A DNA stretch of 64,000 nt from positions 22,914 through 86,913 of the forward strand of contig CAZRKK010000003.1 of the NCBI GenBank assembly GCA_964600695.1, written 5' to 3'. The notes under the pieces were generated by a model. The model was not told where the DNA came from, did no database searches, and saw only the letters and a list, made by a program, of their open reading frames with translations. The position numbers and the translations under genes are program-made. Origin of the DNA: an uncultured Candidatus Saccharibacteria bacterium. Lineage in GTDB: Bacteria > Patescibacteriota > Doudnabacteria > UBA920. Positions 7,081-64,000 of the stretch are shown here, one piece after another. Position 1 is the stretch's first letter; every line of letters begins with the position of its first letter.

Positions 7081-7494
7081 CTATTCAGCTTTTTCTGCTG
7101 GTTTATCTTTCTTTACAGACTTCTTGTTCTTACTCATAGCTGTTTTAGACTTTGTTGTATTCTTACGAACACGAGGAGTGTTGTCGCGAAGTTCGCGAAC
7201 ATAGTATAACTTGCTTTGACGAACTAAATCATCTTTTACAACTTCGATCTTAGCAATATTAGGAGAGTGTAATGGGTAGATACGTTCTACACCAACGCCG
7301 TTAGAGATTTTACGAACCATGAAAGTTGCGTTAGCACCAGTTCCACCCTTACGAGCGATAACTAGACCTTCGAAAATCTGAATACGTTCTTTACCACCTT
7401 CTTTAATACGATTATGAACCTTAACAGTGTAACCGGTTTTAAAAGGTGTGTGGTCTTTAAGTTGTTCTGCTTTTAAATTCTTTACGAGTTTCAT
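7081..7494 (-). CDS. rplS: 50S ribosomal protein L19 with a Lys-rich C-terminal tail
   Basis: [68 protein letters not shown]. Confidence 0.9.
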
Positions 7495-7495
7495 A

Positions 7496-8473
7496 TTATA
7501 ATAAATTAACTTTCTTGCTATTAAGCTTTGTGAGTATTTCTTTGAGGTCTTTTGGAAATTCGCTTTCCGCTTCTATCCAAGACTCATCAGGTAATTGAAC
7601 TTCAATCTTTTTTGCATGAAGGAACTGCCTGTTAAGGCCAAGCTTCATGACATTCTTGCCACCATAGAGTTCGTCCCCCACAAGAGGGAAACCGGCGGAA
7701 GAAAAATGAACGCGTATCTGATGCGTTCTACCTGTGTGTAATTTTACAACAACTAGGGTGTATTCGTCAAGGCCGCCCGGTAACTGAAAACTTAGGTGTT
7801 CTAGCACTTCGTACTCCGTTAAAGCCGGCTTTGGTATGCCCATATCGCTCTTTTTTATAGTATGTTTACGGAAATCGTTCTTGCTTTTACCCATTGGTTG
7901 GTCAAAAGTGCCATGTGAATTGGGCATATTACCACGAACTAAGGCAATATACTCCTTTTTTACCTTCCGCTCAAAAAAAGCATCTTTAAGGTGTTCATAC
8001 ATAGGTTGTGTGAGAGCCACCAAAATCACCCCAGAAGTATCTTTATCTAAACGATGAACAATCCCATGGCGTTCTTCCTCTCCCACCAAATGAATATCTT
8101 TAAAGTGATATAACAGAGCTTGAGCTAAAGAATCACCTTTAAAGCCTGCTCCAGGATGAACCACCAAACCAGCTGGTTTATCTATAATTAACAGACCATG
8201 GTTGTTGTATAAAGTCTTGATCGGAATGTTCAACGGTTGAGGCTTCTCGGCTGCAGGACTCGGATTATAAACAATAACACTATCCTTCTTAACAGCGCGG
8301 TGTGGTAAAGTATCTACTTCTCCGTTAACTGTTACTAAACCAATTTCGATATCACGTTGAATTTTACTACGAGACATTTTTGGTAATTTTTGCGCCAAAA
8401 ATTTATCTAAACGAATTTTTAGATCTTCTACTACAAACTTTTCGGTTGTACTACTGTTTTCTGCTTTTGTCAT
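7496..8473 (-). CDS. rluD: RluA-family 23S rRNA pseudouridine synthase (RluD-like) with an N-terminal S4 domain
   Basis: S4 domain: [30 protein letters not shown]. Catalytic motif: [14 protein letters not shown]. Confidence 0.85.
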
Positions 8474-62033: not shown

Positions 62034-62984
62034 ATGATTGCAGATTTTACCAAAGCAAAAGAATTAATTGAATCTTCTAACAAGATTTTATTTACAACCC
62101 ACGAGAGAACCGATGGTGACGACCTTGGTTCTGTGTTAGCTTTGGCAGAAGCAGCTCGCAACCTAGGGAAGCAAGTAAGTATAGTCACCACAGGTGGTGT
62201 ACCGAGTCGTCTATTATACCTACCAATGGCAGACGATGTAAACGAAGACCTTGTTAGCGAAGATTTTGATTTATTAGTTGTGTCTGGCTGTTCTTCTTTG
62301 TCCAGAATCAACAATGCTAAAATTGAAAGCCTACAAGTTCCAATCATCAACTTCGATCATCACCCAGATAATAAAAATTATGCTGATGTAAATGTCGTTG
62401 ATCCTACCAAATCTTCTGTAGCAGAGTTAGTTTATGATTTTTTTAGATTTTGTGAATGGGAAATCAATCACCAAATTGCCACCTGCTTATTAACAGGAAT
62501 TATTACTGACACAGGATTACTCATGCATGCCAATACTCAGGCTAGTACTTTGTCTGCCGCTGGAGAGTTAATGAAGCATGGTGCACGAATCAGCCAAGTA
62601 TCTAAACACACCTTTACTAATGCTACCCCAACACATTTAAGAGCGTGGGGTGAGGCTTTAAAGAATTCTTATTTTAATGCAGAGAATCAAGTTATTTATT
62701 CAGTTATAACCGAAGACCAACTTGCTAGTTTGGGTAATCCAGAATTAGCTAATTTCGAAGGATTGGTAGAAACTCTAAATAAAGTTCCGGAAGCCAAGTA
62801 CGCTATGTTTTTAAAAGAAGATCATGGCCGTATAAAAGGTAGTTTACGCAGTGAAGAATACAAAGGAGTTGATGTTCAAAAGATCGCTCAGCAATTAGGT
62901 GGAGGTGGCCATAAACTAGCTGCTGGCTTCTCTATGGTAGGTAAGTTAGCTAAAACCGCTACTGGAAGATGGGAAATAGTTTAG
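62034..62984 (+). CDS. nrnA: DHH/DHHA1 phosphoesterase NrnA (bifunctional oligoribonuclease/pAp phosphatase)
   Basis: DHH motifs: TTHERTDGDDLGSVLAL, INFDHHPDN. DHHA1 motif: GGGGHKLAAGF. Confidence 0.85.
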   Translation: MIADFTKAKELIESSNKILFTTHERTDGDDLGSVLALAEAARNLGKQVSIVTTGGVPSRLLYLPMADDVNEDLVSEDFDLLVVSGCSSLSRINNAKIESLQVPIINFDHHPDNKNYADVNVVDPTKSSVAELVYDFFRFCEWEINHQIATCLLTGIITDTGLLMHANTQASTLSAAGELMKHGARISQVSKHTFTNATPTHLRAWGEALKNSYFNAENQVIYSVITEDQLASLGNPELANFEGLVETLNKVPEAKYAMFLKEDHGRIKGSLRSEEYKGVDVQKIAQQLGGGGHKLAAGFSMVGKLAKTATGRWEIV

Positions 62985-63016
62985 GAAATAAAAAAAACTT
63001 CTTTCGAAGTATGTTT

Positions 63017-63103
63017 TGGTGCGCGGAAGAGGACTCGAACCTCCACGTCCGTGAGGACACTGCCACCTCAAGGCAGCCTGGCTACCAGTTACAGCACCCG
63101 CGC
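63017..63103 (-). tRNA. tRNA-Leu (anticodon GAG), long variable arm, CCA encoded
   Basis: Reverse complement GCGCGGGTGCTGTAACTGGTAGCCAGGCTGCCTTGAGGTGGCAG...GGTTCGAGTCCTCTTCCGCGCACCA; anticodon loop TTGAGGT. Confidence 0.8.
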
Positions 63104-63110
63104 AAAATTG

Positions 63111-63800
63111 TTATAAAGACTCACCAATTATATCTAAAGCTAGCCTTATTTTCAATAGCTTACGTTTTAGAAAATTTTCCTTTGCATCTAAATAAATAGC
63201 TCTTAGCAAAATTAAACCTTCTCTTTTACCATACCTTAACTGATACACCGAAGAGTTTTTATTCTTAGCAATATGACCAGTGACTGAATACAGTTTGTTA
63301 TTCATTTCTCTTAACCATAAAATATGTTGTTTACTTGCTGACATAAATACAACATAGAAAAGAAAACTGGACTTCCACCTCTTATCAAAGTAGGAATAGA
63401 AAGATCCGTCTCCGTCAAAATGACCCCTAAGAAAATAGCTGTAGTATTTTTTCGGAATATTTATATCCTTAATAATTTTAGATTTGTTTGGCATCAACCC
63501 AATTTTTAATAAAAATTGGTATAACTTTACGCTTCCAAATTGGACAAAATGATATTTTTTATCTTTTTCACCACCCCTAGCCTTTAATGAAATTTTATTA
63601 TCTAAATTTAATACACTTTTAAAAGTCAAAGCTAAATCTAAATCTTTCGAAGTGAAATTTATGTGCCGACCATCTTTAGAGAGGTTTCCATCTGCCACAA
63701 TTAAACCAATCGCATATGCTAAATCTGGAGACCATCTTATAATTGTAAACTTAGTAGGCTTCATATTCTGATAATACCTCAAAGTGTAAGTGTATACCAA
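63111..63800 (-). CDS. Free-standing double-motif LAGLIDADG homing endonuclease
   Basis: Motif 1: LAYAIGLIVADGNLSKDGR. Motif 2: SYFLRGHFDGDGSFYSY. Low local GC. The ORF starts 8 nt past the tRNA-Leu 5' end and ends ~75 nt before tRNA-Val. Confidence 0.8.
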   Translation of the reverse strand: MVYTYTLRYYQNMKPTKFTIIRWSPDLAYAIGLIVADGNLSKDGRHINFTSKDLDLALTFKSVLNLDNKISLKARGGEKDKKYHFVQFGSVKLYQFLLKIGLMPNKSKIIKDINIPKKYYSYFLRGHFDGDGSFYSYFDKRWKSSFLFYVVFMSASKQHILWLREMNNKLYSVTGHIAKNKNSSVYQLRYGKREGLILLRAIYLDAKENFLKRKLLKIRLALDIIGESL

Positions 63801-63874
63801 ATATAAAATACAACCCTTGCTAAATTCAAAATAATTCTATATAATCGTATAGTTAGATAAAAAGAGTATTCCAT

Positions 63875-63951
63875 GGGCGGTTAGCTCAGCTGGTCAGAGC
63901 GCTTCGTTTACACCGAAGATGCCACAGGTTCGAATCCTGTACCGCCCACCA
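63875..63951 (+). tRNA. tRNA-Val (anticodon UAC), CCA encoded
   Basis: GGGCGGTTAGCTCAGCTGGTCAGAGCGCTTCGTTTACACCGAAGATGCCACAGGTTCGAATCCTGTACCGCCCACCA. Its acceptor and T arms are identical to those of tRNA-Val(GAC) at 25772. Confidence 0.85.
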
Positions 63952-63976
63952 TCAATTCTCGCAAGTAAATACAATT

Positions 63977-64000
63977 GCGCCCTGGTAGCTCAGTGGTAGA
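63977..64000 (+). tRNA. 5' part of a further tRNA gene, truncated by the window end
   Basis: GCGCCCTGGTAGCTCAGTGGTAGA has the form of an acceptor stem plus D-arm; the isotype cannot be determined. Confidence 0.4.

Follow-up and report, generated by a model that had tools for sequence, protein, structure and literature searches.

A probable free-standing LAGLIDADG homing endonuclease lineage at the 5' edge of tRNA-Leu(GAG) in Candidate Phyla Radiation bacteria

The window analysed here is a stretch of 64,000 nt from an uncultured Candidatus Saccharibacteria bacterium (contig CAZRKK010000003.1, positions 22,914 to 86,913), and close to its right-hand end lies a short gene for a LAGLIDADG protein that directly precedes tRNA-Leu(GAG). 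We read it, with a probability of roughly 0.7, as a free-standing homing endonuclease gene (HEG) of bacteria of the Candidate Phyla Radiation (CPR, or Patescibacteria) that homes to the 5' edge of tRNA-Leu(GAG); both the DNA cleavage and the target site are predictions from sequence comparison. An active free-standing homing endonuclease was one of the possibilities raised in the first-pass annotation of this DNA, and the invariant catalytic aspartates, patchy occupancy of the site and decayed copies described below now speak for that prediction. The two features that form the unit are:

63111..63764, minus strand: LAGLIDADG endonuclease coding sequence (CDS), 217 aa, stop codon included (from the list of open reading frames (ORFs), Pfam and homologue starts)
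63017..63103, minus strand: tRNA-Leu(GAG) (ARAGORN; Rfam, 40.3 bits)

Relatives were fetched by protein similarity and then scanned for tRNAs, which gave 18 distinct loci (four further places were duplicates). In all 18, the endonuclease gene was followed directly on its 3' side by a same-strand tRNA-Leu(GAG). The contigs are labelled Jorgensenbacteria, Brennerbacteria, Daviesbacteria, Paceibacterota, Saccharibacteria (five contigs) or unclassified. The upstream neighbours are unrelated among loci, being rplS, purD, a DAG-kinase-like gene or divergently transcribed genes; in the Jorgensenbacteria locus, rplS lies upstream and gyrB downstream, and four additional long contigs have yet other upstream genes with the same endonuclease-tRNA-Leu(GAG) order. 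Where single loci need to be told apart we use L numbers; rplS, for instance, precedes the endonuclease gene in L002, L175, L103, L011 and L012. The meaningful unit is the endonuclease gene together with tRNA-Leu(GAG). The gene had first been described as lying between tRNA-Leu(GAG) and tRNA-Val(UAC) in a tRNA cluster; both tRNAs are confirmed by ARAGORN and Rfam, but tRNA-Val and the cluster are incidental. For annotation, CPR proteins of ~217 aa recorded as 'hypothetical' or 'intein-containing' upstream of tRNA-Leu(GAG) are members of this family.

One contig, L011 (DAOSDM010000009.1), is labelled Candidatus Pacearchaeota archaeon and carries, in order, rplS, the endonuclease gene and tRNA-Leu(GAG), Val, Phe and Gly. 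The L011 endonuclease shares 76% identity with its counterpart on the Paceibacterota contig L012; L011 is probably a CPR contig that was binned wrongly, not a case of the gene in an archaeon.

The site was also sampled from the tRNA side, by scanning metagenomes with a pattern made from the 5' half of tRNA-Leu(GAG); the counts that follow refer to the 120 matches listed. Fourteen loci had too little upstream sequence for scoring, and 106 had at least 700 nt upstream and could be scored. A same-strand family gene lay directly upstream in 34 of the 106. About 26 of these 34 copies are intact (214-228 aa), four are cut by a contig end and four are disrupted (L058, L088, L097 and L126). The site is empty in the remaining 72 loci (68%), most of which have rplS, the gene for ribosomal protein L19, ending 0-60 nt before the tRNA. 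Two empty loci, L056 and L153, retain a 3' remnant in which the last 32-58 codons of the gene adjoin the tRNA, and L115 has a weak match to a 20-codon remnant (E = 0.09). Identical tRNA sequences were found in both the occupied and the empty state. This mixture of intact, decayed and lost copies is the pattern of a homing cycle, with invasion, decay and loss. A universally conserved CPR core gene, which a linkage of 14/14 had suggested, is ruled out by the 68% of empty sites; the comparison of relatives for presence or absence, proposed in the first-pass annotation, thus returned a gene that is not universal, with degenerate copies and remnants among the loci.

Two pairs of related loci allow the occupied and empty alleles to be aligned. 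L103 (occupied) and L129 (empty) share 83-93% identity in their upstream flanks and 93% in both the tRNA and a downstream segment; L156 (occupied) and L114 (empty) share 76-82% in the upstream flanks. These flanks are collinear in each pair, and the distance from the end of rplS to tRNA +1 is 783-843 nt in the occupied allele versus 69-82 nt in the empty one, a difference of ~715-760 nt. The patch that cannot be aligned between L103 and L129 extends from -784 to ~+245, i.e. beyond the tRNA. In L129 there are also two 20-nt direct repeats, AGAAGCGGATAAACGCGGAT and AGAAGCGGATTAACGCAGAT, located after the rplS stop codon, within the 67 nt that precede tRNA-Leu(GAG) (tRNA on the plus strand). Comparison of the tRNA bases of occupied and empty alleles gave weak differences in the anticodon stem only (p ~0.003, uncorrected for multiple tests or phylogeny), and no base in the tRNA 5' half distinguished the two states.

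Judged from its sequence and a structural model, the protein itself is a LAGLIDADG enzyme of one chain and two domains whose active site is intact; its activity is predicted. It matches Pfam PF14528 LAGLIDADG_3 at 39.8 bits (cut-off 22.5; E = 5e-10), with a weak, below-threshold match of the second domain only to PF00961 LAGLIDADG_1, and a search of the NCBIfam models with the protein gave no family match. The first-pass annotation had seen a double LAGLIDADG protein and had named failure of the catalytic motifs to align as a reason for abandoning that view. Both motifs do align:

63681..63719, minus strand: first LAGLIDADG motif, AYAIGLIVADGNL (translation), containing catalytic Asp25
63399..63434, minus strand: second LAGLIDADG motif, FLRGHFDGDGSF (translation), containing catalytic Asp119

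In monomeric LAGLIDADG enzymes, the two motif aspartates bind the catalytic metal ions, and both strands are cut at an asymmetric site of ~20 bp. Here D25 and D119 are invariant in an alignment of 44 family members, which has 36 invariant columns including D25/G26 and D117, G118, D119 and G120, and both aspartates are at least 95% conserved among 120 homologues. The AlphaFold model (predicted local distance difference test, pLDDT, 90; predicted template modelling score, pTM, 0.87) has the topology alpha-beta-beta-alpha-beta-beta-alpha twice, followed by a C-terminal helix; the two domains and this one helix account for all 217 aa, leaving no extra domain. All of the top 50 Foldseek matches in the PDB are LAGLIDADG proteins, with I-Tsp061I first (E = 1.5e-10, TM score 0.69-0.73) and I-AniI, an intein endonuclease domain, I-SmaMI, WhiA and I-DmoI after it. 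I-Tsp061I (2dch) was also the sole match in a sequence search of the PDB (E = 6e-4). Family members are 52-67% identical to the window protein across CPR phyla, and a profile search found 284 clusters (at 50% identity) at E<=1e-30 within a superfamily of ~19,000 clusters at E<=0.001.

Intact copies of the gene are under purifying selection: the ratio of nonsynonymous to synonymous substitution rates (dN/dS) is 0.09-0.16 in the closest pairs of intact copies, at a dS of ~1. This raises the alternative that the gene has been domesticated, i.e. that an ancestral CPR LAGLIDADG protein has descended vertically with tRNA-Leu(GAG), has a host function and has been lost repeatedly. Possible functions would be regulation or processing of the adjacent tRNA, action in trans as a maturase for CPR rRNA introns, or a role in recombination; a cognate group I intron for a maturase was not found at the locus (Rfam, E<=10). 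Conservation is unusually strong for a homing endonuclease, as seen in the 36 invariant columns, the 52-67% identity across phyla and a dN/dS of ~0.1. Moreover, the gene is tightly coupled to an essential tRNA, with which it can share a promoter or overlap, and synteny is kept between the window and a related genome (CP064996.1, below). However, two thirds of the loci with the same type of tRNA-Leu(GAG), among the matches listed, lack the gene, including near-identical relatives of occupied loci, and disrupted copies are present. The similarity of the protein is also poorly coupled to that of host L19, and the catalytic residues are fully kept, unlike in the domesticated relative WhiA, with no additional domain. 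We therefore judge domestication improbable.

A second alternative is that the gene is the remnant of a group I intron, an archaeal-type intron or an intein that once interrupted a tRNA or some other gene. Most LAGLIDADG genes are borne by introns or inteins, and CPR rRNA genes are rich in insertions (PMC11270868). Against this, both flanking tRNAs are complete and uninterrupted. A search of 62800-64000 at an Rfam E-value of <=10 found no intron family, returning the two tRNAs and two chance hits far below threshold. The ORF has its own start and stop codons, Pfam shows no Hint or intein blocks, and all relatives share the free-standing layout. LAGLIDADG proteins of CPR rRNA introns are, in addition, mostly single-domain (PMC11270868). 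The absence of intron matches, the intact tRNAs and the lack of intein domains effectively refute such an origin. The first-pass annotation was accordingly right to place the gene outside any intron or intein in the window, and its suggestions of an intron remnant and of group I intron structure in the flanks fall away. As for additional LAGLIDADG copies, which it had also raised, tblastn with 12 family members gave only noise (E>0.1) in the 64-kb window.

To compare the descent of the endonuclease with that of its neighbours, we used the adjacent L19 and tRNA genes. Across distant lineages, the endonuclease identity is often above that of the adjacent L19 (73% vs 46% for L150/L156; 66% vs 39% for L112/L150), and the reverse is seen for L014/L082 (49% vs 71%). 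For the window L19 (~7195-7497, minus strand), the nearest sequences are those of L014, L127 and L082; for the window endonuclease, they are those of L002, L175 and L073. In Mantel tests on 16 non-redundant loci, the HEG correlated with the tRNA (r = 0.56, p = 0.003) and less strongly with L19 (r = 0.27, p = 0.02), and L19 did not correlate with the tRNA (r = 0.00, p = 0.44). Short as the markers are, these values suggest that the HEG and its adjacent tRNA travel together, largely uncoupled from host L19. Homing would give such joint travel if it co-converts the neighbouring tRNA.

The same correlations could reflect a mobile cassette comprising the endonuclease gene, tRNA-Leu(GAG) and a terminator, which replaces the resident tRNA by recombination between flanking genes, so that the tRNA is cargo rather than target. 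This account draws on the tracking of endonuclease similarity with the tRNA and the lack of any such tracking between tRNA and L19, on the non-alignable patch that runs past the tRNA in L103 versus L129, and on the way in which gene and tRNA stay joined while their neighbourhood is rearranged, in the window as elsewhere. We nevertheless hold it to be doubtful. Ordinary homing with co-conversion of markers next to the break predicts the same pattern, an 85-nt tRNA carries little phylogenetic signal, and recombination in non-conserved flanks would leave the spread across lineages with different neighbours unaccounted for.

Several observations weigh against homing at the tRNA flank. The genome CP064996.1 has the endonuclease gene at the syntenic site, in an IF2-RbfA-DHH neighbourhood. 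Identity between it and the window is 66% for the endonuclease, 88% for IF2, 79% for RbfA and 75% for DHH, making the endonuclease the most diverged of the four. Along this lineage the gene has descended vertically, under constraint that is relaxed relative to the housekeeping genes and with no sign of recent movement. Every absence might, in principle, be the loss of a gene that was present ancestrally. L19 and the 85-nt tRNA, the two markers to which the comparison of descent was confined, are short and make incongruence tests noisy; the tRNA-first sample covers one tRNA sequence type and the first 120 matches listed. Finally, occupied and empty alleles show no systematic difference in the tRNA and have a similar leader consensus at -6..-1, so the comparison of tRNA and -6..-1 leader offers no allele difference that would account for the escape of a HEG-bearing copy from self-cleavage.

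Homing at the 5' edge of tRNA-Leu(GAG) would, as we envisage it, proceed as follows. The HEG would be transcribed from its own promoter, for which there are consensus matches in the spacer common to tRNA-Val. The monomeric two-domain enzyme, with Asp25 and Asp119 as metal ligands, would be expected from knowledge of the family to cut an asymmetric site of ~20 bp. It would target alleles that lack the HEG and cut where the leader meets the first bases of tRNA-Leu(GAG), a site that would be recognisable across lineages because its tRNA half is conserved. Repair of the break on a HEG-bearing template would then copy in ~0.7-0.8 kb (promoter plus ORF) and co-convert the adjacent tRNA. The inserted element would cut the tRNA off from upstream transcription, for example from rplS. 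Expression of the tRNA would instead come from a promoter in the last 45 nt of the ORF, as in the window, or from co-transcription where the ORF ends inside the tRNA. Copies would subsequently decay and then be deleted, at times with the 3' end left beside the tRNA. The window copy is probably still functional, since it is intact and a related genome has kept it at the syntenic position.

The candidate expression signals at the window locus are:

63127..63155, minus strand: sigma-70-type promoter-like site TTGAAA-N17-TATAAT, 11/12, the best match in 62900-64000
63765..63874, no strand assigned: divergent intergenic region with back-to-back candidate promoters (consensus matches only)
63829-63800 and 63800-63771, minus strand: candidate endonuclease-gene promoters (consensus match only)
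63817-63845, plus strand: candidate tRNA-Val promoter TTGCTA-N17-TATAAT (consensus match only)
62989..63010, minus strand: terminator-like hairpin ACTTC-GAAA-GAAGT plus T8, directly after tRNA-Leu (read from the sequence)

The first of these sites is embedded in the 3'-terminal 45 nt of the ORF, with 23 nt between the end of its -10 box and tRNA +1. The -35 hexamer coincides with Leu-Lys codons of the conserved C-terminal helix, in which K205 is invariant, and the -10 box with Asp-Ile-Ile codons. The same embedded site is present in L001, L002, L175, L177, L168 and L169. At a threshold of at least 10/12, it was found in 11 of 41 non-redundant occupied loci, compared with none of 202 control windows inside the same ORFs. 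The remnants in L056 and L115 keep a site of this kind as well (TTGAAG-N17-TATAGT and TTGAAA-N17-TATGAT, respectively). We infer that in this subset of loci, which includes the window, a promoter within the endonuclease gene drives transcription of tRNA-Leu(GAG). As a universal feature of the family the embedded promoter was rejected, being strong in only those 11/41 loci. Loci without the site, or in which the ORF ends in the tRNA, presumably rely on co-transcription and separation by RNase P. Beyond the tRNA, the hairpin and T8 face the end of a convergent DHH/NrnA gene. The hairpin was not called by a terminator scan (its stem has fewer than three G-C pairs); L001 has an analogous hairpin with a T-run.

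The join between gene and tRNA takes more than one form. Some loci have 2-13 nt between the stop codon and the tRNA; in others the reading frame enters the tRNA by 10-36 nt, and in 16 loci of the tRNA-first sample the stop is the D-loop TAA at tRNA positions +13 to +15. Overall, about half of the family has an ORF with no stop before the tRNA that ends inside it, usually at this TAA and sometimes 30-36 nt in; such ORFs include those of L006-L015, L073, L083-L085, L089, L103, L120, L127, L145 and L169. ORFs that run into the tRNA are a genuine feature of the family, not an annotation error. Processing of an overlapping ORF-tRNA co-transcript by RNase P would yield a non-stop mRNA.

The remaining features of the window locus are:

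63111-63800, minus strand: longer ORF reading, 229 aa from an in-frame TTG at 63800
63875..63951, plus strand: tRNA-Val(UAC) (ARAGORN and Rfam), transcribed divergently from the endonuclease gene
63977-64000, plus strand: further tRNA, truncated by the end of the window; the identical contig L005 shows it as tRNA-Phe(GAA)

The first-pass annotation gave the ORF as 229 aa, and the frame is indeed open from the TTG. The CDS is most likely 63111-63764 (217 aa) all the same, because an identical 217-aa database protein and more than 1000 homologues start at the ATG at 63764 (MKP...) and the 12 codons between the TTG and this ATG are not conserved among homologues. Its spacers of 8 and about 75 nt change with this: tRNA-Leu(GAG), which follows the ORF directly and in the same orientation, is separated from the stop codon by 7 nt (63104-63110), and the tRNA-Val side measures 74 nt from the TTG but 110 nt from the ATG. 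The description of the ORF as AT-rich was accurate, at 30.0% GC versus 37.9% for the whole window, i.e. ~8 GC points lower. The Rfam gathering scan of the whole window missed tRNA-Leu(GAG) (40.3 bits), which was detected once the region was searched alone; filter settings can thus hide a tRNA-Leu(GAG) of this type from Rfam scans. The order Val(UAC)-Phe(GAA), followed in relatives by Gly(GCC), recurs beside tRNA-Leu(GAG) in many CPR loci, and in the window the Val-Phe order is inverted relative to tRNA-Leu.

A scan of viral_contigs (IMG/VR) with an anticodon-plus-T-arm pattern gave 39 loci of 41-70% GC, none with a LAGLIDADG gene, a result that is uninformative about CPR. Many of these loci (L016-L054) carry only the 3' part of tRNA-Leu(GAG), from the anticodon arm to CCA, beside unrelated sequence. 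The partial tRNAs resemble prophage attachment sites of higher-GC, apparently non-CPR hosts.

Among known systems, I-Tsp061I and I-DmoI are alike in being single chains of ~200 aa with two motifs, one catalytic acidic residue in each, and the same two-fold fold. They are only ~20% identical to the window protein and are encoded in archaeal rRNA introns from which they home into rDNA, whereas the window gene is free-standing, in CPR, and docked on a tRNA flank. WhiA is likewise bacterial and free-standing with a double LAGLIDADG fold (structural match 3hyi, Foldseek E ~1e-7). WhiA has lost the catalytic acidic residues and has a C-terminal helix-turn-helix domain; in the window family, by contrast, both aspartates are invariant and there is no extra domain.

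In the report on phage T4 SegB (PMC2330249), this free-standing endonuclease, encoded among tRNA genes, is described as cutting the genome that lacks its gene and so favouring inheritance of its own gene and the flanking tRNA region. SegB and the other free-standing seg/mob endonucleases resemble the window family in being free-standing, in the intronless homing proposed here and in the co-inheritance of HEG and adjacent tRNA that we infer. SegB is, however, a GIY-YIG enzyme of a phage, and the window family comprises LAGLIDADG proteins of cellular genomes that occupy one precise position at one tRNA across a bacterial radiation, with promoter sharing or overlap. The LAGLIDADG endonucleases of CPR rRNA insertions (e.g. 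I-ShaI) belong to the same host group and superfamily; they are mostly single-domain homodimers of the LAGLIDADG_1/_2 type in group-I-like introns of 16S and 23S genes, for which site-specific homing with horizontal transfer among CPR lineages has been proposed in a paper that makes no mention of tRNA (PMC11270868). The window family differs from them in being double-domain LAGLIDADG_3, free-standing and tRNA-linked. A literature search, which did not span all journals, turned up no account of a LAGLIDADG family linked to tRNA-Leu.

A second, distant LAGLIDADG ORF was seen ~11 nt downstream of tRNA-Leu(UAA) in L076 (5323-6078, minus strand) and also in L111, L128 and L144. It is ~251 aa long, has the motifs SYVLGYVTADGC and FVRGFFDGDGTV and shares ~30% identity with the window family. 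The order is tRNA-Cys(GCA), tRNA-Leu(UAA), ORF, and the tRNA-Leu(GAG) site is empty in all four loci. Since this second ORF also adjoins a tRNA-Leu gene, CPR genomes may hold several endonuclease lineages that dock on tRNA flanks.

We tentatively suggest, as a possibility, that the element is hard to lose through its takeover of the expression of an essential tRNA and that, with the tRNA-Leu(UAA) lineage, it represents a distinct tRNA-flank-docking lifestyle in CPR. A clean deletion would silence or damage the tRNA, because the 3' end of the element is the presumed tRNA promoter or overlaps the tRNA, with its stop codon in the D-loop. If such a takeover has occurred, decay would leave a 3' stub, as in L056 and L153. 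RNase P would, in the overlap variants, remove the stop codon, tying endonuclease synthesis to tRNA maturation and to rescue by transfer-messenger RNA (tmRNA). If the lifestyle is real, such endonucleases would drive horizontal exchange of tRNA genes.

To our knowledge, free-standing homing endonucleases of the LAGLIDADG type have been little studied in bacteria, and the LAGLIDADG endonucleases known from CPR genomes reside in introns of rRNA genes. What is new here is a free-standing bacterial lineage with a fixed docking site on a tRNA flank and shared expression signals, rather than a new principle. The system is widespread and experimentally tractable, and its overlap of gene and tRNA and the embedding of a promoter are notable. 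Its members may also serve as compact scaffolds for single-chain meganucleases, with the 5' edge of tRNA-Leu(GAG) as a predictable target. For the biology of CPR, a single site, exactly defined and strongly conserved, comes with many natural alleles in the intact, decayed and empty states. With these one could ask how a selfish endonuclease holds its place beside an essential gene, how the two come to share expression signals, and whether the endonuclease moves tRNA genes between genetically intractable lineages.

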